A stretch of 64,000 bases of DNA, from contig JAQWOT010000148.1 of NCBI GenBank assembly GCA_029245725.1, forward strand, positions 50,918 to 114,917, in the 5' to 3' direction. Positions 8,786 to 23,637 of this stretch are shown here, piece after piece. The stretch is from SAR324 cluster bacterium (GTDB lineage: Bacteria > SAR324 > NAC60-12). The notes under the pieces were generated by a model. That model made no database searches and was not told where the DNA came from. It saw only the letters and a program-made list of their open reading frames with translations. Each line of letters begins with the position of its first letter. The stretch's first letter is position 1. The translations under genes were made by a program, and so were the position numbers.

Positions 8786-10021
8786 TCATCTGCTAAGATA
8801 ATCACAAATCGTCGGATTACTCCCGTTATCCCAGGTGCAGTATTCAGTGACACTAGTCTCTCTGTCATCTGTAACTCGCCAAATGACTGTGAGACTGGAG
8901 TTATCGAAGTTTCCCAAGCGGGAGTTTGCTGAAAAGCGATCAACCAAATTTAACGCAGGACTTGTATCCCAACGATATGAAAGTGTGCTGGGTCGTTCAT
9001 CTGAAGCTTCTCCTGAGATATATAAAGTACCGTCTGTCAATTGAAGAGTAATTTTGGAAATTATTGGATCAAATTCAAGGCCGAATCCACCAATTGAAAT
9101 TGTTACCTGCTGATCAAGTTCATTCTCAATCGCTGCCTTGATCTCCGTTCGTTTTTTTTCAATCTCACTCACCACTTCACTTTCAACCACTTGTCCTGAT
9201 TCAGGAATTGCATTTGTGATTGAAGTCACCAGGGAATTCATTGAATCTCTAATTTCATTTTTTACATTTCCGCCCAAAGGGTTCACCAGAGTTTGATCTT
9301 CCAGAATTAGATCAAGAGCGGTTGTGCTTGCCTGGACCAGCGAGTCTGTGGATGTCAGCTCTTCTGAAGGCAAAGTGGACAATTGACTTGCGAAAATCTC
9401 TATGGAACGAAGCTGAGCTGATTGATTCAATGCAATCGAACCCTCCCCTTGCCCCAGCATTCCCGCAAGCCCCTCTACAGTCTTTGCAATGCGGAGAAGA
9501 GGTGCTGATGTCCCTGTAGATGCCGCTATGTCACTGTTCCAGTCTCCTAAAGACTGCAGAGTCTCCTTCAACTCAGGTTCATAAGCCACTAGAGTGGTTA
9601 GAGGTGTGATGTTGGTCACTGCTTGTCCTTCGCTTGGTAGAGGAGCGAGCATCGGCGCTGCCTCTACCTTTTGGCCTGCTGCGTCCAAATAAGTACCTCC
9701 AATAGACATCAGGACTCCTTCACCGGCACCGACCGTTAAGGTATAAGATCCATCATTCCCTGATGTTGTATCTGGCTCACCAGGGTCACGCTGAAAATTT
9801 CCAGTACCGTCTGCTGAGAAACGGTCAAACCAGACTTGGGCGCCTCCCACATAGCCTTGTGCCAACTTACCTTGGACTTTAACAGAGGTAGCTGAGTTTG
9901 ACTCATTTTCCTCTGCTTTACTGCTTGAACCACCACCACCTCCGCCACCACATCCAAGGGAACTCAGCAGACAAATTAGAGAGGCTCCAAGTATTATGTT
10001 ATTGAGCTGCCGTTTCATCAT
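8786..10021 (-). CDS. lipoprotein of unknown function (paralog B), Gly-rich linker after the lipobox
   Basis: Signal peptide with lipobox SSLGC followed by a GGGGGGGSS linker. Paralogous to 7014..8651. Overlaps the stop of the upstream giant lipoprotein by 23 nt. Confidence 0.7.
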   Translation of the reverse strand: MMKRQLNNIILGASLICLLSSLGCGGGGGGGSSSKAEENESNSATSVKVQGKLAQGYVGGAQVWFDRFSADGTGNFQRDPGEPDTTSGNDGSYTLTVGAGEGVLMSIGGTYLDAAGQKVEAAPMLAPLPSEGQAVTNITPLTTLVAYEPELKETLQSLGDWNSDIAASTGTSAPLLRIAKTVEGLAGMLGQGEGSIALNQSAQLRSIEIFASQLSTLPSEELTSTDSLVQASTTALDLILEDQTLVNPLGGNVKNEIRDSMNSLVTSITNAIPESGQVVESEVVSEIEKKRTEIKAAIENELDQQVTISIGGFGLEFDPIISKITLQLTDGTLYISGEASDERPSTLSYRWDTSPALNLVDRFSANSRLGNFDNSSLTVIWRVTDDRETSVTEYCTWDNGSNPTICDYLSR

Positions 10022-12665
10022 AGTAACTGAATATGTAGAATACTCCTACACCACCAGTGACATAGGCGAAATAATAATCATTAGGTTCAGTGAGTGCTGG
10101 AAGCCCAGTGTAGTACTTGACGGTTGTGTTGTAATTCTCATCTTCACGCGCAGTGGTTTTGACACCACTATTAGTGGGATGAATTATTGTATTGATGTCA
10201 GAAGATTTCCTCAGCGTAAAATTGATATTAGGATCAGTCGAAGTGGTTTCAACTGTAATTGAATCAGGAGCTGTGACATTCAATCTAAACGAGTCAGCAT
10301 CTTCCTCATAGAGATAGGACGCTCTACTCTTTCCACTAGGTAAGGGGAGAACAAATTCTCTATTATCATCAGCAACAAATGCTAATCCTGTTGTTAGGTC
10401 ACAAATTATATTGCCGTAGGTTGGAAGTATTGTGTTTAAATCACAGGCAACATTGGAAAAGGTTGTTCCACTCGCTTTATCAAACCAAGTAGTACTGAGA
10501 TCTGCACCAGTCATTGAAATATTGGCTAAACTTGTTGAAACAAAACTCGTCCCAATCAAATTTGTATCAGCAAAAGAGCCCCCTGAAATAGTGCTTTCGA
10601 CAACATCATTATTTTGAAACTGACCTGTAGCAGTCATTCCATTAAAAGTTGAGTGATAAATTAGGTTTTCGTTCATCTGAAGGTTTATGAACATGGAGTT
10701 TTGTATATCAAGCTTGGCCGTTAAACCTGTCAGGGTCAAATTTGAACCTTCTGTCCCTAAAAAAGCTAAATTTGTGTATGGTAAGTTCTGGGTAGTGGGC
10801 GAGTAATCCTCAGGTGAAAATACTGCATCATTGACTGTTGAATCTCTGAAAGTTGTGTTGTAGATCAAAGAATTGATGAATTGTGATCCATCAAAAACAG
10901 AGTTACTAATTTCAACATTTCTCAGGTTAGCACCCTGAAAATTTACATTTGTGAAACTGACATCATCCAAAAAGCTATTTTCAAGCGTAGCATATTTTAA
11001 GTAGCCTCCTTGAAGAATTGCTTTTGTGCCAGGATCTCCAATGCTCCAAGTACCACGATCAAAATATTTTGATTGGAATCCAAGAGCACCGTCTCCATCA
11101 TAGTCACTCCAAGTATGATAATGGCGCCAAACAACTGGTTCGTTTGGATTAGCTATGTTTTGCAAGTCACAATGGTTACAAATACCATCCACTAACAATG
11201 TTCGCCAATTATCCCACGGCAGACTGTTTTTTGGCTTACCGTAAGCTGGCAAAGGATATTCTGAAGCATAAACAAATCCAGTGGATCTATGTACAAAATT
11301 TAATCTCAGATTAGCCGAATAGAGGTCATTCTTATCTATTAGCCCAGAAACTGTTTTCTCAGTTCTTCCATCATCAGTATTTGTAATTTTCAGATAAGGA
11401 GCAGGGAACCCAAGTGGTGTAACTTCCTGGTAATCTAAGTTTGCATAAATCTCTATTTCACTAGACAAGCCCTGAATCTCAAAATCGTAGTATAAATCTG
11501 CGCTATCTGGTGTCATTTCGTATATTAAAGAGATATTATTCAAAGTTGGCATAAAAACTATTTGACTACTTTGGTCAATTGTATCGCCGAAGATATCAAA
11601 GGTGATTTGATTACTTAAACCCAGAGCTTCTGATTTTGTCGAATCTCTTTGGCTAAGTGTGATACTTACACTGAGCTGTACGGGTGGATTTGCAGGTAGT
11701 TGAAATGTCCCTGCAGTGTAATTTTGGACAATCTTACCAGTATTAGAGACACACCAATTTGGATCAGCATCTTTTTCTGCTTGCGAAAGAACAGGGCAAA
11801 CTCTTATCAGATCATTTTCGCCTTTTTCTGCAAATGTAATCGTACCAAATACGTCTTCACACATCCCTTGGTCTCTCGCCTCTGTTGTACAAGTTCCTGT
11901 GACTGTTCCATTGAGTTCGATCAGGTACCCTTGGGGTCCTTTAAACTCAACAATGAAGTTTAGGTTTTGACTTGCTGAATACCTATCGGGTCGATCAATT
12001 TTGGAGATATATGGTATGGCACCAAATCTTGCTTCAGGCTTTAGAATCGGCATCATACGTAGCTGCAAGGGATTCGTGCCGGCTTGAATTTGAAAAGTAT
12101 CAACAGATCCCTCAAAAAGATTTACTGTGAAGTATGTGTTGTCTCCATCGTTATAAGGGGCACTTCCCTCAGCTTTGGGTTCATAGTCGTAGTATGACCG
12201 CCAGCAGCTCCAGAATAGAGTTTCTTGAAATGGAGCTGTAACATCAATTTGCTCCCGACAATCTGATATTTCTGCTTCAGTTGGTGCATCATACGCGACA
12301 GCAGCAAAATCGTAATTTGCTCCAGGAATCACTTTCTCCAACGTACCCACCCAAGCTGAAGTAGGAGTTAAGTCTGCACCAAAGCCGGTAGTCACCAACT
12401 GTAGTTCAATTGTGTCAGTCACCCCCAGTCCATCACTTCTACCATAGGTTAAACTGACCCCAGTCACCTCAAGATAAGTGCCAATATAGCGGCCAGTTTT
12501 GGTCGGCAGTTCCCCAAGAATCACAGTCACGGCTTGTGACTCAGGTTGTTGCTCAACAGATCCTTCCTGCTGGTTGCCATGATCCACACAACTACTCAAC
12601 AGGAGCGTCAGCAGAAAAACGATCGGCCCGATCAGTGTGCGGTGCTTCTTGTTAACTGATTGCAT
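9999..12665 (-). CDS. large (about 888 aa) surface lipoprotein with a pentapeptide-repeat domain
   Basis: Start at MQSVNKKHRTLIGPIVFLLTLLLSSC (lipobox LLSSC). A beta-rich N-terminal region of about 550 aa, then pentapeptide repeats (FTNVNFQGANLRNVEISNSVFDGSQFINSLIYNTTFRDSTVNDAVF..., continuing for about 170 aa). Confidence 0.75.
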   Translation of the reverse strand: MQSVNKKHRTLIGPIVFLLTLLLSSCVDHGNQQEGSVEQQPESQAVTVILGELPTKTGRYIGTYLEVTGVSLTYGRSDGLGVTDTIELQLVTTGFGADLTPTSAWVGTLEKVIPGANYDFAAVAYDAPTEAEISDCREQIDVTAPFQETLFWSCWRSYYDYEPKAEGSAPYNDGDNTYFTVNLFEGSVDTFQIQAGTNPLQLRMMPILKPEARFGAIPYISKIDRPDRYSASQNLNFIVEFKGPQGYLIELNGTVTGTCTTEARDQGMCEDVFGTITFAEKGENDLIRVCPVLSQAEKDADPNWCVSNTGKIVQNYTAGTFQLPANPPVQLSVSITLSQRDSTKSEALGLSNQITFDIFGDTIDQSSQIVFMPTLNNISLIYEMTPDSADLYYDFEIQGLSSEIEIYANLDYQEVTPLGFPAPYLKITNTDDGRTEKTVSGLIDKNDLYSANLRLNFVHRSTGFVYASEYPLPAYGKPKNSLPWDNWRTLLVDGICNHCDLQNIANPNEPVVWRHYHTWSDYDGDGALGFQSKYFDRGTWSIGDPGTKAILQGGYLKYATLENSFLDDVSFTNVNFQGANLRNVEISNSVFDGSQFINSLIYNTTFRDSTVNDAVFSPEDYSPTTQNLPYTNLAFLGTEGSNLTLTGLTAKLDIQNSMFINLQMNENLIYHSTFNGMTATGQFQNNDVVESTISGGSFADTNLIGTSFVSTSLANISMTGADLSTTWFDKASGTTFSNVACDLNTILPTYGNIICDLTTGLAFVADDNREFVLPLPSGKSRASYLYEEDADSFRLNVTAPDSITVETTSTDPNINFTLRKSSDINTIIHPTNSGVKTTAREDENYNTTVKYYTGLPALTEPNDYYFAYVTGGVGVFYIFSYYDETAAQ

Positions 12666-12804
12666 CTCACATCTCTTTTCAAGGGGTTTTTTCTCATTTA
12701 TAAGAAACAATAAAATTCAACTAGATGATTGGTTTGCTTACAACAATATCCTTGCCAAAGCAATTTATTTCACTCCTTATTGAAAAATATTGGGATTTGA
12801 TCTG

Positions 12805-13272
12805 TTACTCCACCAACCTGCGTTCAATTCGGCTCTTGGATACCAGACAAAGCATGTAGAGGATGATTCCGTAAAAAAGCGTGATGAGTGAAATTGCGAC
12901 AGCTGGGAAGAGGGTGTCCTGGCTGAGAACACTCTCCATCTCACGGAGTATCAGGATTGCTCCCAAAAAGGTTCCCAGAATTCCCCAGATCAAGGAAAGG
13001 TTCCAAAGATCTCGCAGACACAACCTCGTGGGCTCCAATTGGCTTTTATCGATGTTCTTGACACTGCCCAGCAGAGCTTTCTAGCTATTGCCGTAGCTCT
13101 TCCAGCCATGCACAGAGATCGTGTAGTAGATGGTGGGCAAGACAACAATGATCAGTGAAGGAATATCGAGGACATACTGGATTTTTTCTGGCATCAGCGC
13201 CAAACGCATGAAATCAAACGTACAGGCAATGAAGATCAGCGCGAACCCAAGCAAATGAGCGATTACCATCAT
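12805..13272 (-). pseudogene. small polytopic membrane protein, with an MotA/TolQ/ExbB-like LGTFLGAILIL helix, interrupted by an in-frame TAG
   Basis: ORFs 13081..13272 and 12805..13038 are in the same frame, separated only by a TAG at 13081-13083. The downstream part has no ATG (TTG only). The joined product is about 155 aa with four predicted TM helices. Confidence 0.4.
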
Positions 13273-13306
13273 CTTTCCCCCTTGATTAAATAGTTTTGGG
13301 GGCTGC

Positions 13307-13600
13307 TTATTGCTCCTGCACTACTGGACCCGAGATGGGGTCCGTTACTCCAAGTTCAGGGCTGATCTCCTCCAGCATGTGCCGGACACTATCCAGAAAG
13401 CCGACCATCGCAGGACGTGCATTGATCAGGGACTCCTGGTTGTCCCACTCGCCGACAGAACAATAGGTGAGCTCTCCTGTTTGGATCAGCCTACCCATCT
13501 GGTATCCAGACGGTCTTTCGAATTCAGCAAATTTACTGACGATCACGTCTTTAAATTCTGGTTTCACACGAAACCGGACGACGTTCATATATTTCGACAA
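13307..13600 (-). CDS. ABM (antibiotic biosynthesis monooxygenase)-like / dimeric alpha+beta barrel protein
   Basis: 97 aa. MNVVRFRVKPEF...ELTYCSVGEWDNQESL pattern resembles the ABM domain. Weak assignment. Confidence 0.45.
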   Translation of the reverse strand: MSKYMNVVRFRVKPEFKDVIVSKFAEFERPSGYQMGRLIQTGELTYCSVGEWDNQESLINARPAMVGFLDSVRHMLEEISPELGVTDPISGPVVQEQ

Positions 13601-13722
13601 CGTTGTCTCCTAAATGCAGGGACGTCAAAGCCCATTGACATATTCTGTAAATCCAGCTCCCATCGCACCAAACATTTCCTTATCCCACCCGAAAAAGCTT
13701 AATATTTGATTAAACGATAAAA

Positions 13723-14058
13723 TCATTTAGTGGGCGCCTGATATCCACTAGACACATCACGCGCCATCGTACAGGCCTTAACCCAGTCTTCAACCGAGAG
13801 CAACTGGATCGTATTGATTCTTGAGCATCCACCAGATGACGCAACTTGAGCCGCAATTGCTGCAGCTGCAACATCATCTGGAAGTTCACAAATTACAATC
13901 GCGTCATCTTCCCCAAAAGCCATCAGGAAGTGAAGCATCTTTCCACCAAAGGTTTCACAGGCCTTGGCGATCATTCCAGATCGGTCAGTTGGATTCTCAA
14001 CCATCGCTTTGATAGAAGCCGACGTGTACGTCGCTTTGTACATGTAGAGTGACATCAT
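13723..14058 (-). CDS. GYD domain protein
   Basis: 111 aa. Y.Y.ATYT...ETFGGKMLHF...GEDDAIVICELPDD..AAAA pattern typical of the GYD family. C-terminal tail SSGYQAPTK. Confidence 0.65.
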   Translation of the reverse strand: MMSLYMYKATYTSASIKAMVENPTDRSGMIAKACETFGGKMLHFLMAFGEDDAIVICELPDDVAAAAIAAQVASSGGCSRINTIQLLSVEDWVKACTMARDVSSGYQAPTK

Positions 14059-14118
14059 TCTCCCTGTTTATGTTGATAGACGGAAACCAATCGACACTAC
14101 AGTCGATTGGTTTATCCA

Positions 14119-14397
14119 TTATTTATTCGGTGCCTGGTACGCAGAAACCACTTTATTAGCAGTTTCCATCGCGGAAGTCATCGATTTGGAATCAATGACT
14201 TCAATCCCTTCAAATCTGGTAAAAGTTCCTGTAGACATCGTTACCATTTCCTCAGCTGTCATACTTTCTGTGTTGCTTTCTGCAATCACTACAATCTCTG
14301 CAGTACTCACACTAAAATAGACACTTTGCATATCGACTCCAACTGCGGCAAAGAGTTTACGAGCAGCAGCTTCTCGGTCTTGTGGGCTATCCACCAT
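14119..14397 (-). CDS. GYD-like domain protein
   Basis: 92 aa. Similar C-terminal architecture and tail VSAYQAPNK, as in the neighbouring GYD proteins. Confidence 0.45.
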   Translation of the reverse strand: MVDSPQDREAAARKLFAAVGVDMQSVYFSVSTAEIVVIAESNTESMTAEEMVTMSTGTFTRFEGIEVIDSKSMTSAMETANKVVSAYQAPNK

Positions 14398-14471
14398 TCC
14401 TTTAAATGCTACATTGCTGTACTTTCCTCTGACAAGATATAAAGATATCTTTTACTCCAAATTAGTAATGA

Positions 14472-14927
14472 TTAGTTATCTATTTTATAGCAATCGTAAG
14501 AAACCTTTCCTGGAGACAACTTACCTTTTGCTACACAAAACAGATTATTTAAGTACTTATACTTTTCTGAAGAAGTTTGCATTCTTGGATTAGTGAATGC
14601 GTAATGATCACCATATTCTGTAGAAATCTCTCCGGCAAGTGCTTTTTGGGTTTTTTCATTAATTACCCAACGACCTGTATACTCTAAATAGATAAGAGCC
14701 CCATCATCAGTTTCTAATGTTAGTCTGACATCTAAAACTAGGCATCCAGAATCATTAATTGTGCCCCACTCTCCACCCATAGAATTTCGCACTATACCTT
14801 GAATACTCGGACCTTTGAATGTTCCACCTGCAGTTTCAATAAACATTCTGTGACCAGTAGGTAAATCTCCCATATCATATGAATGCGGTAGATTAACTGT
14901 CATCTCAAAAAGTTTTTCAAAATTCAT
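14472..14927 (-). CDS. DUF3237-like small beta-barrel protein (tentative)
   Basis: 151 aa. GDLPTGHRMFIETAGGTFKGP...LETDDGALIYLEY pattern recalled for DUF3237. Not verified. Confidence 0.45.
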   Translation of the reverse strand: MNFEKLFEMTVNLPHSYDMGDLPTGHRMFIETAGGTFKGPSIQGIVRNSMGGEWGTINDSGCLVLDVRLTLETDDGALIYLEYTGRWVINEKTQKALAGEISTEYGDHYAFTNPRMQTSSEKYKYLNNLFCVAKGKLSPGKVSYDCYKIDN

Positions 14928-14953
14928 CTTAAGATACTCCTTTTTATACCAAT

Positions 14954-15283
14954 TTAGGACTCTTTGCCGGGGGCTTTATAAACTCCAGAAAACTTGTTCA
15001 TTGTGCCAATAATTGTGTCCAAATCCACAACTGGATAGAACATGATCTCTTCGAACACACCAGACATCTGAATCACCTGCTTCAGTCCCAGAGCTGTTGA
15101 CCAATCAGGCACTTCCATCGTCACACAGACATCCAAGTCTCCTCCCAGAAAATCACAATCAATCAGCTTGGAATCAATTTGAGAGGCCATCCCCTCAATT
15201 TGCTTTACACGGGCTACGTAGCTTGAATCTTTCATTCCTTTGACAGCATCTTCTGAATAGACTCCCAAAATCTTTATTTTCAT
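14954..15283 (-). CDS. GYD-like domain protein
   Basis: 109 aa, C-terminal tail SGVYKAPGKES. Similar size and composition to the other GYD paralogs. Confidence 0.5.
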   Translation of the reverse strand: MKIKILGVYSEDAVKGMKDSSYVARVKQIEGMASQIDSKLIDCDFLGGDLDVCVTMEVPDWSTALGLKQVIQMSGVFEEIMFYPVVDLDTIIGTMNKFSGVYKAPGKES

Positions 15284-15373
15284 ATTTCTCCTTTGCGGAT
15301 GATGAAGCTCTCACTAGCAAGAAAATTAGTGAGAGCTGGTTAATCTGTTATTGTGAGGACTTCTTTATTAGTC

Positions 15374-15778
15374 TTAAGCCCAGTGCCAAATCTCCCACTT
15401 GGCATTTCCGCTTGGATCTACATCCCACTCGTAAATCATTGCTTTGCCATTGAGGCTCATGAGTGAAGGAGCAGTGGTTTCGAAGTAGCAGGCACCGCGG
15501 AATTTAGAGCCACCATCTTCCGTCATTCCACCTGATCCAGTCGCTCGGAAAGTAGCCACTCCGTCAGCAGCCATCACAATACCTGAATTTGGCAATTCTC
15601 CGTACATACTGCCATCTGCCCGCATTTCCGCATAGTAGGTCGACATTGTTTGAACCTGGACACCTGCCAATGTTCCGCTCCCTTGAACAGCCACCTCAAA
15701 CTTGGGTAAGGTGCCCTGGGTGGGGAGGACTTTGTTTGCTGCAGTACAGGTCATCGATCCCATCTTTTCACCTAACAT
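15374..15778 (-). CDS. hypothetical protein (Gly/Thr-rich, predicted beta-rich)
   Basis: 134-aa ORF with coding-like composition and no recognisable motif. Start uncertain (MGSM is an alternative). Confidence 0.45.
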   Translation of the reverse strand: MLGEKMGSMTCTAANKVLPTQGTLPKFEVAVQGSGTLAGVQVQTMSTYYAEMRADGSMYGELPNSGIVMAADGVATFRATGSGGMTEDGGSKFRGACYFETTAPSLMSLNGKAMIYEWDVDPSGNAKWEIWHWA

Positions 15779-15845
15779 AAGAATCTCCTTGGTTTGTATG
15801 AATCAATCGTTTTCAAGCACATATTAGATAGTGCTCTCAGGCAAT

Positions 15846-16193
15846 CTAGTCTGCCATACTCCCAACCACTTCTCCATGCATGATCATTCCCACGGAATAG
15901 TTTGCAATCACCTTTTCCAACATGACTCCAATGTCTTGCCAACCTGCTGAACTTTCCATGTGTGCCTGGCTTCCTTCTAGACCACGGTAGACCTCAGTCA
16001 ATGCCATCATTGTATGACCAGTTGTACCTTCAGAAGGGTCCAAAGGATTTTTCAATTCCGAGGCTTTTGAGATCGTGTAGACCAAAGGGCTAGGCTCAGC
16101 CGGCCCCTGGTGGGTTGCCCGCATCCACTTCTCATGACTGGTAGCCAGAATGGCTTCCACTTCTGGCACTTCGGCGTCGGGTACACGAAACAT
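15846..16193 (-). CDS. hypothetical protein
   Basis: ORF from MFRVPDAEV, about 115 aa. No recognisable motif. Confidence 0.4.
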   Translation of the reverse strand: MFRVPDAEVPEVEAILATSHEKWMRATHQGPAEPSPLVYTISKASELKNPLDPSEGTTGHTMMALTEVYRGLEGSQAHMESSAGWQDIGVMLEKVIANYSVGMIMHGEVVGSMAD

Positions 16194-16260
16194 GAAATTA
16201 AAGGTCCGACAACTTTTATTGATCATTTGTTTCTCCAGTTTGAGATGAAAATAGGAGTGA

Positions 16261-16533
16261 TTATGGCTTCAAAGTCTCTGAGAGCGTTGCAGCTGCATCG
16301 GCATCCGTACCGACAGGAGTCACTTCCAGGTGACAGGTGCGGTTCCATTGTTGGCAATATTTCATGACTGCCTGGTAATCATCCGTCTCCACTACCATGA
16401 AGCCTGTGCTGGATGGCTCATGCCAGCGACCGATCAGCTTCATGCCGTACCATTTTTCCTCTCCACCGGCGAACTGAGTCTGAGTGACATGAATCAGTTC
16501 TTCCTTGATGGAATAAGAGATCTTGAACAACAT
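16261..16533 (-). CDS. DUF3303-like small protein (tentative)
   Basis: 90 aa. GRWHEPSSTGFMVVETDD...EVTPV motif pattern recalled for DUF3303. Not verified. Confidence 0.4.
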   Translation of the reverse strand: MLFKISYSIKEELIHVTQTQFAGGEEKWYGMKLIGRWHEPSSTGFMVVETDDYQAVMKYCQQWNRTCHLEVTPVGTDADAAATLSETLKP

Positions 16534-16612
16534 TTTTCATCCTTTGCATTGAGAGTGTGAATGAGGTCAACATTCCCAATTGAGGGAATGCACTGAAAAT
16601 CGACGCTTCGTT

Positions 16613-16972
16613 TTAGCCTTTGGCGTAAGTGGCTGCCGTAGAACCCTCGAATTCGTAGGCGATCACTTCCTCATCCCCAACAACCCAACCATCGTGACCA
16701 GGACCAAAAACATAGAAATCACCTGCCTTCACATCCAACTCGGAACCATCATCTGAAATTACATGGAGTTGACCTTGTTGAATGAAACCAACATGTGATT
16801 TCTGACAAGACTCAGTTCCAGCCAGTGGTTTGATACACTCAGACCACTTCCAACCTGGTTGCAGGCGGAGCTGAGAGGCCATTTGGCCATTCAACTCAAC
16901 CACTGCCATCCGAGTCTTGTCTGGAGTACGAACGTCTTGAGAGTCCGCAAAATTGGCTTTCATCAAACTACT
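16613..16972 (-). CDS. cupin domain protein
   Basis: About 120 aa from MSSLMKANF. The G(X)5HXH-like SHVGFIQQGQLHV stretch and the GDFYVFGPGHDGW beta-strand region fit a cupin barrel. The ORF-track upstream extension is probably not translated. Confidence 0.55.
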   Translation of the reverse strand, partial: SSLMKANFADSQDVRTPDKTRMAVVELNGQMASQLRLQPGWKWSECIKPLAGTESCQKSHVGFIQQGQLHVISDDGSELDVKAGDFYVFGPGHDGWVVGDEEVIAYEFEGSTAATYAKG

Positions 16973-17099
16973 CATTTGTTTCTCCTGTAATGAGGAAGGG
17001 GAGGGCCCCTGGCATAGAAGGGGGAGGACTATGCCAAGGGCGGAGTGCCTGCAACCACAAAGAGCAGCAGGCAGACACAGCCAAAAGATTGATGTGAAA

Positions 17100-17450
17100 T
17101 CAACTTCCTGGTTTAGAATAGGTAGAAGCTTCCTGCAACGCCTTTGCTCGTTCGAAGAGCGGCACTGCATCTGCAGCTCGCAATGCTGGAAGAGTGGTGA
17201 TTGATTCAATAGCGCCTGATCCTCGAACCAACAAAGCATCAATCAAACTGAGTTCGTTGACATTTTGATCATCAGGAAACTCACTGACGATAATGAAATC
17301 GATCCCACCATTGAGCAAAAAATAGTAGTCAATCAACTTACCACCCAAAGCATCTACCATTTTTCCGAGCGCTTCTGCACGGTTTTCTGGTTTTGCAGTC
17401 AGCCCATTGAGGCCCTCTTTGCTCATCTTGCCATAGGTCACATAGATCAT
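17100..17450 (-). CDS. GYD domain protein
   Basis: Start at MIYVTYGKMSKEG. ALGGKLIDYYF...GIDFIIVSEFPDD fits the GYD pattern. Confidence 0.65.
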   Translation of the reverse strand: MIYVTYGKMSKEGLNGLTAKPENRAEALGKMVDALGGKLIDYYFLLNGGIDFIIVSEFPDDQNVNELSLIDALLVRGSGAIESITTLPALRAADAVPLFERAKALQEASTYSKPGS

Positions 17451-17479
17451 TGTACTCTCCGCAGTTGGTTGGTTTTGTA

Positions 17480-17752
17480 TCAATCTGCTAGGGGAACCAT
17501 TACGGTCGATTCAACAATGTGTCCTGCTTTTTCAATAGTGGCGGCGTTCTCTGGACTCTGCATGAAGGCCTGCATTGTGGCCATGTCTGCCACTTCAAAC
17601 ATCAAATGGACTTTCTGCAGATTAGCAGCCTCGACACCTACGAAAACGTCTTTGATATTGGCAGCGTCTCTGGCGGCTTTGTGTTCATCAAAGACTGCTT
17701 TCCACTCAGCATAACTTTTGGAGATTTCAAAATTGATCAAGAGTCTCATCAC
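17480..17752 (-). CDS. hypothetical small protein (ferredoxin-like fold family suspected)
   Basis: 90-aa ORF. Its stop lies just upstream of the GYD gene start. Confidence 0.4.
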   Translation of the reverse strand: MMRLLINFEISKSYAEWKAVFDEHKAARDAANIKDVFVGVEAANLQKVHLMFEVADMATMQAFMQSPENAATIEKAGHIVESTVMVPLAD

Positions 17753-18125
17753 TCACTCAGTAGAAAAGTTTGGTTTATAGAAAATTAAGATTTGGTTAGG
17801 AATAAGGTGCAATGAGTTCAACAAATATCTTTGAAAGAAATAGAACTTGGCTAGAAAAAATGAAAATATCTGTTTTTATTCAATTTCTGCCTCTTGATAT
17901 TTCATGTCTATACGGTGTGAAAAATTGCGATACGTTTTTTTATCAGGCTTTTTGTACCGACTGAGAGATAGACAGTCAATCAAAAATCTAGAAGTATTTC
18001 AAAAGAACCAATCGGGAAGCTTTTCTGTGGAATGTGGAATGGGCATCATGAGAGGATCGTCCGATTGGTTGAACCAATCGGACTGCAAAATAAGCTTTTT
18101 GGCGGAGCCAAAAGTTCTGGGGGTT

Positions 18126-18698
18126 TCAGGCGCTAGGAGAACCCTGAAGATTTGCGACAACTTGGTTCATTGTGCGCTGGTAGAAATCCAACCCCTGTCC
18201 CTGTGCGTAGAGAATCGCACCCTTCATGGAGGACAGGACAAGGTTTGCTTGATCCTTGGTTTCACCTACAAAGAACAATTCCTCGCTGGATCGGCCATCT
18301 TCGAGAATCGAGGTCAGCATAGATATCTCAGTCTCTTCAATCTTGGTCAGCACTCCCTTCATTTCTTCGTTAATGTTCCAACGATCTGCTTGGAATGAAC
18401 TCACAGGACAGATTTTTTTCTCTTCAATCGATTTGACTCCCAGATCCAAAAAAGCCTGAAGCTTCTGGAGGGAATTCATTCTGGAATTCCTTAATTGATT
18501 TTCAATATCTTTAGCGAGCTCGAATCGATACTTCAAGTAAGCCAAACCCAGTTCCTGCTTTTTCGGGAAATGGTGGTGGATACTGGCCTTACGGATCCCC
18601 AGCCGCAAGGATAAATCATTATAGCTGAAGCTGTCATAGCCTTTGGTCTGAATCATTTCCCCAGCTAGCATGAGAATTTCTGACTGCCTCTCTCTCAT
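18126..18698 (-). CDS. TetR/AcrR family transcriptional regulator
   Basis: N-terminal HTH GYDSFSYNDLSLRLGIRKASIHHHFPKKQEL is the TetR signature. 190 aa. Confidence 0.85.
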   Translation of the reverse strand: MRERQSEILMLAGEMIQTKGYDSFSYNDLSLRLGIRKASIHHHFPKKQELGLAYLKYRFELAKDIENQLRNSRMNSLQKLQAFLDLGVKSIEEKKICPVSSFQADRWNINEEMKGVLTKIEETEISMLTSILEDGRSSEELFFVGETKDQANLVLSSMKGAILYAQGQGLDFYQRTMNQVVANLQGSPSA

Positions 18699-18733: not shown

Positions 18734-18778
18734 ATTGATTAGTTTGAAATCAATTATCCTAACTACTAAGTAGTAGTT
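18734..18778. promoter_or_regulatory. two inverted repeats upstream of the TetR gene (candidate operators)
   Basis: ATTGATT-agtttga-AATCAAT (18734-18754) and AACTACTA-ag-TAGTAGTT (18761-18778), 40-80 bp upstream of the TetR start in an AT-rich intergenic region. Confidence 0.35.
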
Positions 18779-18883: not shown

Positions 18884-20287
18884 TCAAGTAACATTAAAAA
18901 CACCTCCCATTCCTGAGATATGGTGCTCCAACATATGGCAGTGGAAGAGCCAAAGCCCAGGATTGTCTGCCACGAAAAAGAGGTGGGCCTGCTCTCCCGG
19001 ATCCATCAAATAAGTGTCTCTTTTTTGTGGCAAAATGGTTCCTTTTCCCTCAATCCAAAAGTGATGTCCATGTAAGTGTATCGCATGTGGCCAAGCCGTA
19101 TCATTCCAGAGTTCCAAAGCCACCCATTCTCCCAGCTCAAGGTCCGCAATGCGGCTGGTCGCCTGCATCATTTGACCGTTGAAAGCCCAAACTTTCTGGT
19201 GTTGTCGCACGGCTTCCTGAAGCGGAATGGTTTCTCCCTGGTATGTTACCTCACGCAAATTGCCCATTGCTCCCCCCTGCATATGAATGGGAATACGCCG
19301 GGCCTGCTGCAACTCCAACTTCGGTAGTGGCACCGATGGCAAGCGCAGTGCCGGCCTTGGGAAGGAAAATCGAGTGGTTACATCCGGAACAAAAGAGGCA
19401 GCAGTCAGAGTTTGGCTCGTGCTGACTTCCTGTAACTTAAATACATCAGGTCCTGCATCCACCAAAACATCCATCCGTTGAGCGGTCGCCAACTCTAACC
19501 CACGCTCATCAAGGGGAAAGGGCTCACAGGGGTAACCATCCAGCGCAATCACTGTTCCCTGAGAACCTTCCAGCTTTAGCCGAAGAACTCGAGCATTGGC
19601 AGCGTTGATCAGGCGCAAGCGTAAGCGGCTCCCACCAGAGATAGGAAATTGAGGTTGTAGCCGCCCGTTGATCGTGAACCAACTTCCCAATCTGCCGTTG
19701 TGAGACCAGTCGTGCATATTGCGGAAGGACGCTTCATCAATCTGCGCATTCTCATCTAGCCGCCAATCGTCCATGATCAGCACCAACTCCTGGTCAACTT
19801 CGATATCATCGTTACCCTGGACAATCAACGGACCATACAACCCACGAGCAACCTGCTCCCAGGCCATCGTATGAGCGTGATACCAGTAGGTCCCGGCATC
19901 TTTCAACGGTACGGTGTAAGTGAATTCACCACCGGGCGGCACTGGATCCTGTGTCAAACCGGCGACTCCGTCCATCGCGTTGACATTCCGGATCCCATGC
20001 CAGTGAATGGTGCTGGGAACAGATAGCTGGTTCCGAAAGCGTACTTGCAACAGGTCACCCTGGTGGGCTTTCAGGAAAGGGCCACCCAGCCGATCATTGT
20101 AGAGCCAGAGACGAGTATCCGGATTATCTGGGCCAGCCAAGTTCTGCACACTCTCCTTGGCGGTGAGATCAAATTCTACGATTCGTTGTGATGCCTCAGC
20201 TCGAACAGAAGTGTGTTTTAGGAAGGGAGTCGTGGCGAGTAGACCAGACCACTTTAAAAGATCTCTGCGTTTCAATGGCTTTCTCAA
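18884..20287 (-). CDS. multicopper oxidase (CueO/CopA-like), Tat-secreted
   Basis: Tat signal RRDLLKW. Copper-site motifs HWHG, HAHT and HCHMLEHHISGM. 467 aa. Confidence 0.9.
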   Translation of the reverse strand: MRKPLKRRDLLKWSGLLATTPFLKHTSVRAEASQRIVEFDLTAKESVQNLAGPDNPDTRLWLYNDRLGGPFLKAHQGDLLQVRFRNQLSVPSTIHWHGIRNVNAMDGVAGLTQDPVPPGGEFTYTVPLKDAGTYWYHAHTMAWEQVARGLYGPLIVQGNDDIEVDQELVLIMDDWRLDENAQIDEASFRNMHDWSHNGRLGSWFTINGRLQPQFPISGGSRLRLRLINAANARVLRLKLEGSQGTVIALDGYPCEPFPLDERGLELATAQRMDVLVDAGPDVFKLQEVSTSQTLTAASFVPDVTTRFSFPRPALRLPSVPLPKLELQQARRIPIHMQGGAMGNLREVTYQGETIPLQEAVRQHQKVWAFNGQMMQATSRIADLELGEWVALELWNDTAWPHAIHLHGHHFWIEGKGTILPQKRDTYLMDPGEQAHLFFVADNPGLWLFHCHMLEHHISGMGGVFNVT

Positions 20288-20363
20288 TTGTCCTGTTGTG
20301 TTTCAGATGAAAATTGAACTTGAAATTAGAATAGCAGTTCATCATTGTAAGACGCAACAATAT

Positions 20364-20383
20364 ACCCTATACGGGTATAGGGT
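20364..20383. promoter_or_regulatory. perfect palindrome ACCCTATAC-gg-GTATAGGGT in the divergent MCO/copC promoter region
   Basis: 9-bp perfect arms with a 2-nt spacer, centred between the MCO start (20287) and the copC start (20463). Confidence 0.4.
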
Positions 20384-20462
20384 TCATGAATGATGATCTA
20401 GAAGCTTTGCACTAAAAAAGTATTTTCAATTCGAATACACAAACCCCACAACGAAATAGCTC

Positions 20463-20834
20463 ATGGCAAGCCTCACTAAAAAATGGTCCAATTTTCAGCT
20501 CCTAGTCACAAGTATCCTAGTGCTTTTTTGGGCTGGGTTGGGCTGGGCTCACTCCAAGCAGGAATCCACAGTTCCAGCTAACAATGCGGTTCTAATGGAA
20601 GCTCCAGCAGAGTTGGTTCTGAATTTCGACAAACCCATGCGGATCACCAAGCTAGCGTTATCTGATCAATCTGGCAAAGACTACGAAGTTCAACGCACCG
20701 ATCAGATGAAGCATGTTCTGAAGCTAGTTGCTCAATTGGATCCTGTGCCCAATGGTGAATACAAGGTAGATTGGAGGGGACTTTCAGAAGATGGGCATCC
20801 AATGAAAGGAACCTTCTCTTTCACCCTGAAGTGA
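20463..20834 (+). CDS. copC: CopC periplasmic copper-binding protein
   Basis: Signal peptide, then mature N-terminus HSKQ.. . CopC-fold motifs including WRGLSEDGHPMKGTFSF. 123 aa. Immediately followed by copD. Confidence 0.75.
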   Translation: MASLTKKWSNFQLLVTSILVLFWAGLGWAHSKQESTVPANNAVLMEAPAELVLNFDKPMRITKLALSDQSGKDYEVQRTDQMKHVLKLVAQLDPVPNGEYKVDWRGLSEDGHPMKGTFSFTLK

Positions 20835-21718
20835 TTCTGCAAGAGATCTGGTTGGCCTTGGAGGCTCTCGATGAATTTTCTCTCAGTACTATCGCTGCTA
20901 AGACGCTGGCCTACTGGACCACTCTAGTGGCTGCTGGCTCAGCGCTGAATTTGCTCTGGCTCCATGAAACGGCTCCTCAAGTGATCCCGCTGCTTCGTTG
21001 GTTTGGCCTAATCTGCGCTGTCCTTGCGTTGCTTCTCAACTTCTCACTGATACCCTTACAAGCAAGCTACTTGATGGGAGAATGGTACGCCTTTCAAGAC
21101 CCGATGATGCTCCAGGTTGCCTGGGAAAGTCCCCTTGGTGACAGCCTCCTTTTACGGGGGATTGGGCTCCTATTACTGCTTTTCATCATTCGTCCAAGCA
21201 CGTTGACTCGGGGTATCTCTGTTCTTGGATGTGGTCTGATTGCCCTCTCCTTTGCCTTTCAAGGACACTCTCTCTCTGAACCACGCTGGCTACTAGTGAG
21301 CTTGATCACTCTTCATCTGCTTGGTTTGAGTTTCTGGATTGGGGGATTTGCTCCCTTGGCAAAACTGGCCAAACTACAAGAATCCGTGACAGGAGCAGCT
21401 GCTCAACAATTTGGAAAGATTTCCGTTTGGAATGTACTTTTGCTAGCGCTGGCAGGATCTGCATTACTCTGGTTTTTGACGGAGGGCAATTGGAATGTCC
21501 TGTGGACCGCTTACGGTCAACTTTTTGTTCTCAAGCTTCTTGGATTTCTGGGGTTGCTTGGACTGGCTGCATTGAACAAACTGGCTCTGACTCCAGCTTT
21601 GCTGCGAAATGATCCAAAAGCCTACGGTAGACTTCGTCTGTCCATCTCCATTGAGATGTTTTTTGCTCTATTAATTCTGGTGATTACGGCAACGCTAACC
21701 ACCGTAGGAATAGAATAA
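20831..21718 (+). CDS. copD: CopD copper resistance inner-membrane protein
   Basis: Polytopic membrane protein. An in-frame GTG at 20831 overlaps the copC stop (GTGA). The ORF-track ATG at 20771 would overlap copC by 64 nt. Confidence 0.75.
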   Translation: MILQEIWLALEALDEFSLSTIAAKTLAYWTTLVAAGSALNLLWLHETAPQVIPLLRWFGLICAVLALLLNFSLIPLQASYLMGEWYAFQDPMMLQVAWESPLGDSLLLRGIGLLLLLFIIRPSTLTRGISVLGCGLIALSFAFQGHSLSEPRWLLVSLITLHLLGLSFWIGGFAPLAKLAKLQESVTGAAAQQFGKISVWNVLLLALAGSALLWFLTEGNWNVLWTAYGQLFVLKLLGFLGLLGLAALNKLALTPALLRNDPKAYGRLRLSISIEMFFALLILVITATLTTVGIE

Positions 21719-21836
21719 AATAAATAGTTACAATCAAAACAACTGCTTTGTTGAAGAGATCTTTGTCGAATTTTAACAATACAGTGGTGCGGGATTATTA
21801 TTTTTCACTGCCTTTAATTCATTTTCCATATTCATC

Positions 21837-22190
21837 GTGAATATCACTTCTACTACTTATTTTCGCCTGTTAGTGGTGCTGCTAGTTTTCAATGCAAACT
21901 GCATTGCACCGCCCATCTCAAAAGGATCTTTCTCGGCATATCAGGATCTGACTGTGGCAGCTAGCAGCATGCATCACAATTCAGAGAGCGAACACGATTC
22001 TAGTCCTAACAGTCACTCAGCTCAGCAACACAATCATTCTGTATCTTGCGCAGATTGCCCACTGATTGAAGCCATTCAACCAGTCCAAATTATCTTCCAG
22101 AAGATTCTAATAATTTGGGGGATCAAGCCATCCCTAATTTCCATACCTTACGAAAACATCACACCTCCCCCTGAAAGACTCCGTTTCTAA
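21837..22190 (+). CDS. small secreted His-rich protein with a CADC motif (putative metal-binding, DUF2946-like?)
   Basis: 117 aa with a signal-like N-terminus, His-rich segment HHNSESEHDSSPNSHSAQQHNHS and CADC. Lies inside the copper island. Confidence 0.35.
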   Translation: MNITSTTYFRLLVVLLVFNANCIAPPISKGSFSAYQDLTVAASSMHHNSESEHDSSPNSHSAQQHNHSVSCADCPLIEAIQPVQIIFQKILIIWGIKPSLISIPYENITPPPERLRF

Positions 22191-22280
22191 TTGTGTGCGG
22201 CACTTGCCGTTAATCCTATTCTGAACACGGAGCTATCTATGTCGATTCTGGATTTTCGTGTGGGTCCACGAGGCCTGCGC

Positions 22281-23624
22281 ATGACTGCAGTACTGTGTGT
22301 ACTGTTGCTCTTCAAAGTCCAAACTGTTTCTGCACAATCTACCTGGCAAGATGCCAACCGCCTTGTAGATGCCCTGGGCGGTTGGCGCACTTACCTCCAG
22401 GAGCGTGCAACTGCACCTGAAAATTATCCTAAAATTCCAAGCACTGAGGAGATGATACGTCTCAAAGAGGTGCTTGAATTCCCTAACTCTACTGTTGAGC
22501 GAGTTGCCCAGCGTCGGCTGGAAAGTGAGCGGGCAAGAATTCGTTCTGCTCCCCTCTCTCCACCAACATTGAGTTATGCAGTCACTGAAAGTGAGGATGA
22601 ACGCAGTCAGGAGTGGGGCATTCATCTTCCTATTGGGGCGTGGTTTGAACGCTCCAGCAGCCTAGCTTCTGATGATCGTAGCTGGGGAACTGCATTATCA
22701 GAAGCATTGCGGTTGGAAAGTCTTCACAGTCGTTCGCTGTCCTACGCTGAGGCTGTAGCTGCCAAAGCAGAACTGATTCAGACACTCGACCGACTGGAAA
22801 TCAGCAGAATTTTGGAAGAATTCCTGAAACGTCAACGCTCAATTCAAGCAATTCCTGAAGGTGAGCTCCTAGCGATCCGAATGGAACTGGTTGATGCAGA
22901 AGCCCAGGCAGATCTAGCGAACGCTCGACTGCTACGAACGCTCGAAGAACTTGCTTATCAGCTTGGACTCTCTGTCGAAGAGACAGACTCCCTTGTAGAC
23001 AGACTCCCCCTTGAACCCGAAGTGATCCCCGAGTTGCACACTGTTCCAAAGGTAAGACTGGATCTTCAACAAAGCAGAGATCTGATTGCCTTGCGTGAAT
23101 CGGAACAGGGGCGAGCAACCGTTAGTCAATGGATGGGAGGTTTGGAACTCGGCTGGATGCAGGAACAAAGTGACGCAGGTCATGAATCACGGACGGTTGA
23201 AATTAGCTGGCGGCTGCCCTTTGGTGGAGAAGGGAGCAAGCGCTCCCAGATCAGTCAGTTTCAATTGGAAGAGGCTCAGGCCGAACTAGAATTGCGACAT
23301 TTGCAGATCAAGCAAGAGCAGCGGGAAGTTGAGCGCCAAAAAGAGATTGCAAACAACCATCTGATTCGCGCCAAAGCAGGCCAGGAAGATGCCGAACTTT
23401 GGATGGAGGAACAACTCTACCGCTACAACGGAATGCTGATTGGTCCTCATGAACTGCTCCAAGCCGCCAGTCGACTGCGTAGTGCACGGAGTCGACTGAT
23501 TCAAGCACAGCAAGGCCAATTTATCGCCCAGATCCAGGCTCATTTTAGCCAAGCCATTGCAATCAATCTACAACCTAATGCCACTGCTGCTCCAATGGAG
23601 TCTGCAGCCAGCGGTGGCCACTAA
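22281..23624 (+). CDS. outer membrane efflux protein (TolC/OEP family) candidate
   Basis: Start at MTAVLCVLLLF (signal peptide). About 447 aa with long coiled-coil-type repeats (LLRTLEELAYQLG, LELRHLQIKQEQ, LLQAASRLRSARSRL) as in outer membrane factors. Assignment moderate. Confidence 0.5.
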   Translation: MTAVLCVLLLFKVQTVSAQSTWQDANRLVDALGGWRTYLQERATAPENYPKIPSTEEMIRLKEVLEFPNSTVERVAQRRLESERARIRSAPLSPPTLSYAVTESEDERSQEWGIHLPIGAWFERSSSLASDDRSWGTALSEALRLESLHSRSLSYAEAVAAKAELIQTLDRLEISRILEEFLKRQRSIQAIPEGELLAIRMELVDAEAQADLANARLLRTLEELAYQLGLSVEETDSLVDRLPLEPEVIPELHTVPKVRLDLQQSRDLIALRESEQGRATVSQWMGGLELGWMQEQSDAGHESRTVEISWRLPFGGEGSKRSQISQFQLEEAQAELELRHLQIKQEQREVERQKEIANNHLIRAKAGQEDAELWMEEQLYRYNGMLIGPHELLQAASRLRSARSRLIQAQQGQFIAQIQAHFSQAIAINLQPNATAAPMESAASGGH

Positions 23625-23637
23625 TTCAGGAAATCAA

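Follow-up and report, generated by a model that had tools for sequence, protein, structure and literature searches.

What might a marine bacterium do with a tight row of eleven small genes, four of them members of the GYD family, lying beside a single TetR-type regulator? The question is raised by a stretch of 64,000 nucleotides from a SAR324 cluster bacterium (assembly GCA_029245725.1, contig JAQWOT010000148.1, positions 50,918 to 114,917 of the forward strand), which we call the window and in which all positions are counted. In the deep ocean, SAR324 ranks among the most abundant bacterial lineages. The row of genes is an array of SAR324-specific accessory genes for small cytoplasmic proteins built from a few simple folds. 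As the best explanation, we tentatively propose that it may be an inducible accessory operon whose products, working without cofactors, would bind or transform reactive small molecules. A preliminary description of the locus, made from its letters, had taken it for an inducible stress or xenobiotic response module under the TetR regulator; that idea is plausible and appears slightly strengthened by what follows.

The Array and Its Genes

Within 13307-18698 there are 11 genes for proteins of 89 to 151 amino acids (aa), plus the TetR gene, all on the minus strand, in agreement with the dozen or so dense, co-oriented small genes first described. In the list of open reading frames (ORFs), the whole of 12805-18698 holds genes on the minus strand only. 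Read in that direction, the regulator gene tetR (18126-18698; 190 aa; Pfam TetR_N, 34.8 bits) is followed by the array's first gene, DUF3764 (17480-17749; 89 aa; 47.9 bits, Dabb and DUF1330 being matched weakly), and then by GYD4 (17100-17450; 116 aa; 50.6 bits), a cupin (16613-16975; 120 aa; Cupin_2, 21.6 bits), DUF3303 (16261-16533; 90 aa; 63.9 bits), unk126 (15846-16226; 126 aa) and unk134 (15374-15778; 134 aa), the last two without a Pfam match. Next come GYD3 (14954-15283; 109 aa; 29.3 bits, E = 9e-7), a DUF3237 β-barrel (14472-14927; 151 aa; 122 bits), GYD2 (14119-14448; 109 aa; 43.2 bits with its N-terminus restored), GYD1 (13723-14058; 111 aa; 64.6 bits) and an ABM-like gene (13307-13600; 97 aa; 15.1 bits, E = 0.026). 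The last co-oriented gene, at 12805-13272, codes for a MotA/TolQ/ExbB-like membrane protein of 155 aa (MotA_ExbB, 27.2 bits once repaired). The ORF at 16613-17242 (209 aa) is in reality the 120-aa cupin, with its start at 16975, and the GYD2 gene extends beyond the ORF first listed for it. Many of the intergenic gaps are just 23 to 34 bp long and hold a ribosome-binding site and nothing else.

Pfam supports all four of the GYD copies that had been called: GYD1, full-length GYD2 and GYD4 exceed the gathering score of 31.4 bits, and GYD3 falls marginally below it. The DUF3237 and DUF3303 calls were correct, both scoring above the Pfam cut-off; for the cupin and ABM-like calls Pfam matches do exist, but both are below the cut-off (23.1 bits in the case of ABM). 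Several ORFs had been described as unassignable. This holds for unk126, but another of them is DUF3764, and unk134 is a barrel of the DUF3237 fold. There are no additional GYD copies in the 64-kb window, and scans of the island proteins with NCBIfam and PADLOC (the latter with 10 proteins, GYD2 being left out) gave no matches. That the proteins are small and soluble is borne out, as none of the 11 has a hydrophobic segment, the highest 19-residue Kyte–Doolittle mean being at most 1.45. By fold, the four GYD proteins, DUF3303, DUF3764 and the ABM-like protein are ferredoxin-like α+β members; to these are added the two barrels of the DUF3237 fold and the cupin.

The related loci carry designations of the form L001. 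L004 belongs to SAR324 cluster bacterium JCVI-SC AAA005, L001 to L003 are metagenome-assembled genomes (MAGs) labelled uncultured bacterium, uncultured proteobacterium and Deltaproteobacteria bacterium, and a TetR-anchored scan of metagenome contigs gave 13 further close loci. When the island genes of the window are compared with intact orthologues at a synonymous divergence (dS) of 0.1 to 1.2, the ratio of nonsynonymous to synonymous divergence (dN/dS) is 0.00 to 0.16: 0.05-0.09 for DUF3764, 0.03-0.08 for the cupin, 0.01-0.15 for DUF3303, 0.03 for unk126, 0.00-0.03 for unk134, 0.02-0.03 for GYD3, 0.02-0.06 for GYD1 and 0.06-0.16 for the ABM-like gene. GYD4 lies mostly at 0.04-0.10, with 0.45 against the near-identical L012, where dS is merely 0.025. 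The unk134 protein is 100% identical to that of one orthologue at a dS of 0.71. Given these low ratios, the island genes are real and, where intact, under strong purifying selection. The start of DUF3764 is the ATG at 17749, which is conserved across loci, whereas a GTG further upstream is not.

The TetR Regulator

TetR adjoins the array in every locus carrying both, and its dN/dS is 0.05 to 0.22. What might it sense? Its matches in the PDB are 3on4 and 2g7s, followed by Escherichia coli NemR (4yze), which is matched over the full length with E = 1e-8. NemR is a repressor that is released by electrophiles and reactive chlorine, and its Cys106-Lys175 pair forms the chlorine switch (PMC7464077). 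The sole cysteine of TetR, C97, is aligned with NemR Cys106, and the Cys-Pro motif that it forms with P98 is invariant in 9 TetR homologues. The same motif is conserved in homologues that are 32 to 35% identical to TetR and come from marine bacteria (L024, L027, L028, L032, L035). In these loci a gene for an NADH:flavin oxidoreductase of the Old Yellow Enzyme (OYE) type lies directly downstream on the same strand, and it is followed, in the loci extending that far (not L024 and L032), by a gene for a DUF1295/steroid-reductase-like membrane protein. The SAR324 locus has no Oxidored_FMN (OYE, nemA-type) gene, such genes being present only behind the homologues of 32 to 35% identity. Taken together, the likeness to NemR and the OYE layout support an oxidant- or electrophile-responsive TetR switch, without amounting to proof.

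The Candidate Promoter, the Leader and the Hairpins

The most conserved part of the 373-bp leader, as compared in 11 loci, is a candidate array promoter block on the minus strand at 17951-17990, with the −35 element TTGACT at 17979-17974 and the −10 element TACAAA at 17956-17951. The −35 and the 17-nt spacer, GTCTATCTCTCAGTCGG (17957-17973), are almost invariant, and the spacer motif has a single occurrence in the window. It is tempting to consider this spacer the best candidate for the repressor operator, a putative function at present. A search of the 373-nt leader against Rfam (E ≤ 1) found no riboswitch or known RNA.

Two inverted repeats upstream of tetR, at 18734-18778 on the minus strand, had previously been singled out as places where TetR might bind. 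They read AACTACTA-ct-TAGTAGTT (arms of 8+8 bp, 2 nt apart) and ATTGATT-7 nt-AATCAAT (arms of 7+7 bp, 7 nt apart). The repeats are indeed present, but they are poorly conserved. In L001 they are degenerate and L004 lacks them, even though the TetR proteins there are 87 to 88% identical, and so they are weak operator candidates.

Directly 3′ of the tetR stop codon, on the minus strand, the terminator scan places a weak terminator-like hairpin with a T-run (18097-18113; −6.6 kcal/mol), which has a counterpart of different sequence at the same position in L001. Close to it, on the same strand, is a perfect 25-bp palindrome, GTCCGATTGGTT-C-AACCAATCGGAC, at 18059-18083, which folds with −17.8 kcal/mol (z = −5.1). 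Across 10 distinct sequences of the palindrome, 94.5% of cells pair; two pairs have changed on both sides and six on one side only, and all of the one-sided changes are G-U compatible on the sense strand. Because G-U pairing is kept on the sense strand and compensatory changes occur, the tetR transcript most likely carries the palindrome as an RNA stem-loop at its 3′ end.

A 9-mer, AACCAATCG, is present in the window in five copies, every one of them inside the island (0 of 100 shuffles). It sits in two different hairpin geometries, at 18059-18083 and 14084-14113, and in a lone half-site at 18006-18015. The palindrome and the 9-mer were considered as a TetR operator; this is disfavoured, as the variation fits an RNA hairpin. 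In L013 one and the same G-to-A change is common to the two palindrome arms and the lone half-site, and the RNA-hairpin reading leaves this change in step unexplained.

Other stem-loops, also on the minus strand, are found between GYD4 and the cupin (17005-17041; 13-bp arms; −24.2 kcal/mol, z = −5.2), between unk134 and GYD3 (15306-15337; 11-bp arms; −16.3 kcal/mol, z = −4.7) and between GYD2 and GYD1 (14084-14113; 12-bp arms, AAACCAATCGAC...GTCGATTGGTTT; −21.5 kcal/mol, z = −6.4). The GYD2–GYD1 stem-loop is conserved in L004 and in L017 to L020, and it contains two copies of the 9-mer. Stem-loops of this kind in the longer spacers might serve as stabilisers of the mRNA or as partial terminators.

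The GYD Copies and Their C-Terminal Tail

Are the four GYD copies the outcome of a local expansion, and do they bear a tag of their own? Their tails are present exactly as described, GYQAPTK in GYD1, AYQAPNK in GYD2 and VYKAPGKES in GYD3, with TYSKPGS in the fourth copy, GYD4. Thus, three copies have Y-[QK]-A-P and the fourth has Y-S-K-P; the corresponding motif, Y-x-[AP]-P, is absent from the Pfam GYD model itself. A search with a profile of the window copies against 1.84 billion representative proteins gave 5,332 GYD matches (E ≤ 1e-3). Among the best 150 of these, 109 are full-length proteins, and 65 of the 109 have Y-x-[AP]-P within their last 14 residues, most commonly six residues from the C-terminal end, with the caveat that the tail was part of the query profile, which favours tail-bearing proteins among the top 150. 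Near variants such as YKPAG, YRGPT and FRAPK are frequent in the rest of the 109, and distant GYD homologues end in ...YRPPGKTGK and ...YRAPGK. Since the tail is widespread in GYD representatives and has been kept by distant homologues, it is an ancestral hallmark of the family and not a tag of this island. The suggestion that it is a shared recognition or processing tag is not upheld, as the motif occurs family-wide.

The AlphaFold2 (AF2) model of the GYD1 monomer, with a mean predicted confidence (pLDDT) of 91.3, has its elements in the order β-α-α-β-β-α-β-α, and its structural neighbours are all ferredoxin-like, namely RAM, ACT, Dabb, NIPSNAP and MhuD-type domains. The copies agree with the GYD family in being single domains of 109 to 116 aa with, as judged from the GYD1 model, a ferredoxin-like α+β fold. 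Searches of the PDB with sequence, profile and fold turned up no solved GYD structure. In the monomer model the tail forms an unstructured coil extension whose pLDDT is about 59 to 75. We propose that Y-x-[AP]-P-x-x is a C-terminal arm, probably for oligomerisation or for closing a ligand site.

Pairwise identity among the four copies is 22 to 31%. GYD1, GYD2 and GYD4 are 45 to 70% identical to cluster representatives from outside (52% in the case of GYD4), and GYD3, the most divergent copy, has a nearest outside representative that is only 28 to 29% identical. Because the copies are closer to outside relatives than to each other, they are old subfamilies that have been brought together. The island does contain four paralogs, as the preliminary description had it, but these are anciently diverged subfamilies and not a local expansion. 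The exception to this old divergence is a tandem extra copy of GYD2, GYD2′, which is 67% identical to it and is found in L001, L013 and L022. Around GYD homologues of other phyla (L005 to L010) the gene context is heterogeneous; the high GC of these loci made the ORF calls noisy.

Could the GYD proteins, instead of being enzymes or sponges, be small ligand-sensing regulatory subunits of the ACT/RAM type that bind a metabolite and modulate partner enzymes, with the array serving as a stationary-phase or general-stress set? Among the structural neighbours of GYD1 there are, in fact, the RAM domain of Lrp/AsnC, the ACT domain of SpoT/RelA and the C-terminal domains of MgtC and NikR. In addition, a GYD protein was among the most induced proteins in the proteomics of stationary-phase Burkholderia thailandensis (PMC12322963). 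On the other hand, the array encodes no partner enzymes, and the companions of the GYD genes in it, DUF3237, ABM and cupin, have enzyme-type folds. A GYD-type protein of Thermus, TTHA1554, reportedly binds glutamine synthetase; searches for TTHA1554 in the PDB (with both sequence and fold) and in the literature gave no entry. We consider this explanation rather unlikely.

The Barrel Proteins and unk126

In the PDB, the product of the DUF3237 gene at 14472-14927 matched 4pux with E = 3e-19, and 3g7g and 3c5o as well. This protein belongs to DUF3237 (PF11578) by sequence, whereas unk134 does so by fold only, the fold being the eight-stranded closed barrel seen in 3c5o, 3g7g and 4pux. With the AF2 model of unk134 (pLDDT 94.2), Foldseek returned these three structures at the top (TM 0.78-0.81), followed by PhnH, AbyU and PloI4. 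On the strength of this model, unk134 is predicted to be a second barrel of the DUF3237 fold, its sequence similarity to DUF3237 being undetectable.

The unk134 family has at least 242 homologues, L038 to L046 being among their loci. Copies that are 60 to 70% identical occur in MAGs of Alphaproteobacteria and Chloroflexi, where they are stand-alone genes, and in two unrelated lineages the homologues adjoin SnoaL_2 genes. We regard unk134 as the representative of a possible new family within the DUF3237 clan, unnamed, widespread in marine bacteria and without a Pfam model.

As for unk126, it has no match in Pfam, NCBIfam, PADLOC or the PDB, and none with the GYD profile. It has 19 homologues, mostly very close, and the family is nearly confined to close relatives of this locus. 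A pattern β-α-β-β-α-β may be read by eye from its sequence, and we offer it as a reading only.

Variation among Related Loci

The content of the array differs among 13 related loci, and the gene order is identical in all of them. The cupin is missing from L013 and L017 to L020, unk126 from L011, L012 and L017 to L020, and both unk134 and DUF3237 from L013. In L004, the array is reduced to part of DUF3764, followed by GYD2, GYD1 and the ABM-like gene. The ribosome-binding site and a mutated start codon of the cupin remain in L017 and L019, and the cupin deletion of L013 has other end-points. An extra ABM gene of 115 aa, situated between GYD1 and the ABM-like gene, is intact in L002 (1022-1369 of that locus) and L013; it scores 21.6 bits, slightly below the ABM cut-off of 23.1. 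L013 also has an ORF of 137 aa between GYD1 and the ABM-like gene, with no Pfam match, the region concerned being 14154-14975 of that locus. Since L002 and L013 hold this extra ABM gene, and L013 the 137-aa ORF, the pan-array is larger than the window's version of it. The window retains a deletion scar of the ABM gene on the minus strand at 13625-13722, including the final 16 codons and the stop (13625-13675) of the 115-aa gene; in the alignment, both flanks are kept and about 300 bp are gone.

In unk134, a TAA at codon 4 and a TAG at codon 116 are found in L017, L018 and L020. GYD2 has a TAG at codon 30 in L004, L019 and L020 and a TAA at codon 26 in L013, and TGA codons interrupt the DUF3237 gene of L017 and of L019. 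The GYD2 start codon (14446-14448) is ATA in the window and ATG in all other loci readable there, and initiation at the next in-frame ATG would mean the loss of the first β-strand. Given the ATA start and the nonsense codons in L004, L013, L019 and L020, GYD2 appears to be decaying in several lineages. The MotA/TolQ/ExbB-like gene of the window has an in-frame TAG at 13081-13083, where ten other loci have TGG (Trp) and an eleventh, L013, is frameshifted; this TAG is thus either an error of sequencing or a nonsense mutation peculiar to the window. An explanation by read-through of the codon, or by pyrrolysine, was rejected in view of the TGG in ten loci and of the mixture of TAA, TAG and TGA among the other nonsense codons.

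The DUF3237 allele of the window has a GC content of 35.5% (24% at third codon positions) and is accompanied by a GC dip at 14001-15000. It is only 62 to 66% identical to the full-length alleles elsewhere, as against 88 to 98% for the neighbouring genes, and its C-terminal third is closely similar to the L017 allele. An identical allele occurs in an independent metagenome of the Joint Genome Institute. These features suggest recombination or replacement inside the DUF3237 gene. Altogether, the variation among the loci consists of single-gene deletions with scars, one tandem duplication (GYD2/GYD2′), the replacement of one allele, that of DUF3237, and mutations that introduce nonsense codons or change a start codon.

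It should be mentioned that L013 and L017 to L020 are all JACLAC01 contigs, from one metagenome assembly, and that several of their nonsense codons in unk134, GYD2 and DUF3237 are shared. L003 and L014 contain frameshifted or rearranged copies, as with GYD3 split around DUF3303. The lesions in the JACLAC01 contigs, L003 and L014 may be real pseudogenes or assembly errors.

A Possible Role for the Array

How would such an array be expressed, and to what end? We propose that its eleven genes, and probably the MotA/ExbB-like gene too, would be co-transcribed from the sigma-70-type site at 17979-17951, about 190 nt upstream of DUF3764. TetR, which is encoded upstream with terminator hairpins of its own, would repress the array promoter by way of the invariant spacer. 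The most likely inducers would be electrophiles, quinones, or stress from oxidants or chlorine, because C97 is at the position of NemR Cys106 and distant homologues of TetR head OYE operons. Characterised proteins of the ABM and cupin families need no cofactor to act on small molecules that are aromatic or hydrophobic. Two examples of characterised DUF3237 proteins are likewise cofactor-free and act on aromatics, namely the hydroalkoxylase PhnH (PMC11969235) and the decarboxylases PhcF and PhcG (PMC9942872). Since the characterised DUF3237, ABM and cupin proteins act in this manner, the products of the array would, likewise without cofactors, bind or sequester reactive small molecules, mostly aromatic or hydrophobic ones, or transform them.

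A bolder version would have a NemR-like regulon in which the GYD subfamilies assemble through their Y-x-[AP]-P arms into ferredoxin-like barrels, either homo- or hetero-oligomeric, by which reactive electrophiles or quinones would be captured or detoxified. We give it little credence, but, if true, it would provide a first function and a first inducer for the large GYD family (over 5,000 clusters at 50% identity), and likewise for DUF3303, DUF3764 and the unk134 barrel family of marine bacteria.

Several points weigh against an inducible operon of cofactor-free proteins. Co-transcription and control by TetR are both deduced from gene position only. A consensus promoter scan, at its thresholds, did not flag the TTGACT-17-TACAAA block, and no operator motif common to the region upstream of tetR and the array promoter was found. 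The match between TetR and NemR is merely 38 bits, and the equivalent of NemR Lys175 is Gln166, so that the lysine partner of a Cys-Lys switch is missing. The frequency of pseudogenes implies that the array genes are dispensable. The component genes are unlinked outside SAR324, the unk134 and GYD homologues being mostly stand-alone, and the gene set is therefore not a co-evolving pathway. Finally, the literature search found no demonstrated activity for any GYD, DUF3303 or DUF3764 protein.

A different explanation is that there is no common regulation and that the locus is a tolerated dumping ground of independently expressed accessory genes, where TetR controls itself or the adjacent multicopper oxidase. 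The terminator-like hairpins 3′ of tetR, the stable hairpins between several array genes, the free gain and loss of single genes, the common pseudogenes and the lack of linkage of the component families elsewhere are all in accordance with it. Nevertheless, many gaps of 23 to 34 bp have only a ribosome-binding site inside, a single strongly conserved promoter-like block is present and it heads the array, and the gene order is the same in all loci. As for the oxidase, the gene beside tetR has been exchanged for a variant only 40 to 58% identical in L004, L014 and L017 to L020, in which TetR is 86 to 87% identical, and TetR and the array persist. For these reasons we find independent expression of the genes not very probable.

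The oxidase in question, which has a twin-arginine (TAT) signal, is encoded on the minus strand at 18884-20287, beside tetR. It is the first gene of a copper-resistance cluster (18884-25011) that continues on the plus strand with CopC (20463-20834), CopD (20771-21718) and a second, CopA-like oxidase (23557-25011). Is the array, then, an accessory to copper or metal homeostasis, made up of cytoplasmic metal buffers or of proteins that protect against copper-driven oxidative damage? It is located directly beside these copper genes, and the oxidase and TetR are adjacent in all loci reaching that far. Against this, the small proteins lack Cys-, His- or Met-rich motifs, and two of the GYD copies contain neither Cys nor His; TetR-family proteins are untypical as copper sensors; and the cop genes are on the opposite strand or upstream, with signals of their own. 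A role in copper homeostasis thus seems quite improbable.

Small co-oriented genes gained and lost singly between strains, and inverted repeats in several spacers, might suggest a cassette array like that of an integron, or else an island for defence or immunity. Either is most improbable, since the gene order is fixed, several gaps of 23 to 34 bp are too short for attC, the neighbouring ORFs that were scanned, which cover part of the flanks in the 64-kb window, include no recognisable integrase, the 10 island proteins searched, without GYD2, have no PADLOC match, and the deletion end-points vary by lineage and leave gene remnants. The cassette version was rejected outright, as the junction alignments revealed simple deletions that leave remnants, and nothing resembling attC.

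On its other side, directly downstream, the array is bordered by a gene for a pentapeptide-repeat protein of 903 aa with a lipoprotein-type signal, LLLSSC (9999-12710, minus strand). The orthologues in L004 and L017 to L020 are only 38 to 40% identical, so that this, too, is a gene that evolves fast or has been replaced.

Comparison with Known Systems

The locus is of interest in that it gathers uncharacterised families (GYD, DUF3303, DUF3764, unk134 and unk126) behind one candidate stress-sensing regulator. If this regulation is real, the array would be a convenient handle on the function of GYD proteins, and its value as an experimental handle extends to the unk134 barrel family. The Y-x-[AP]-P motif of GYD proteins should not be taken as a locus-specific tag. 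In other respects the locus is ordinary: a lineage-specific, strain-variable accessory operon of DUF proteins beside a one-component regulator.

The closest parallel to the proposed inducible operon is nemR-nemA-gloA of E. coli, where a TetR-family gene likewise heads co-oriented genes of the detoxification type; the parallel with nemR-nemA extends to the OYE reductase behind the homologues that are 32 to 35% identical to the window's TetR. In contrast to the E. coli operon, the SAR324 array has no OYE or glyoxalase, its cargo being GYD, DUF3237, cupin and ABM-type proteins, and tetR ends in a putative terminator of its own, the array having a separate candidate promoter. The regulator also differs from NemR in having Gln at the position of Lys175 and in its low similarity, and no NemR-type operator was identified in the SAR324 locus.

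Small cofactor-free folds of the same kinds are clustered in natural-product and aromatic-catabolic tailoring clusters, with their ABM, SnoaL, cupin and AbyU-type barrel proteins. However, the SAR324 array is without a core biosynthetic or ring-cleavage enzyme, a transporter, or linkage outside SAR324, and, unlike the DUF3237 enzymes PhnH and PhcF/PhcG, its barrels have no polyketide or lignin-catabolic context. With respect to the GYD family (PF08734), the copies in the window are typical in length, 107 to 116 aa, and in their family-wide Y-x-[AP]-P tail. What sets the array apart is that four or five GYD proteins from different subfamilies are brought together in one SAR324 array, whereas the other GYD loci retrieved are single-copy.

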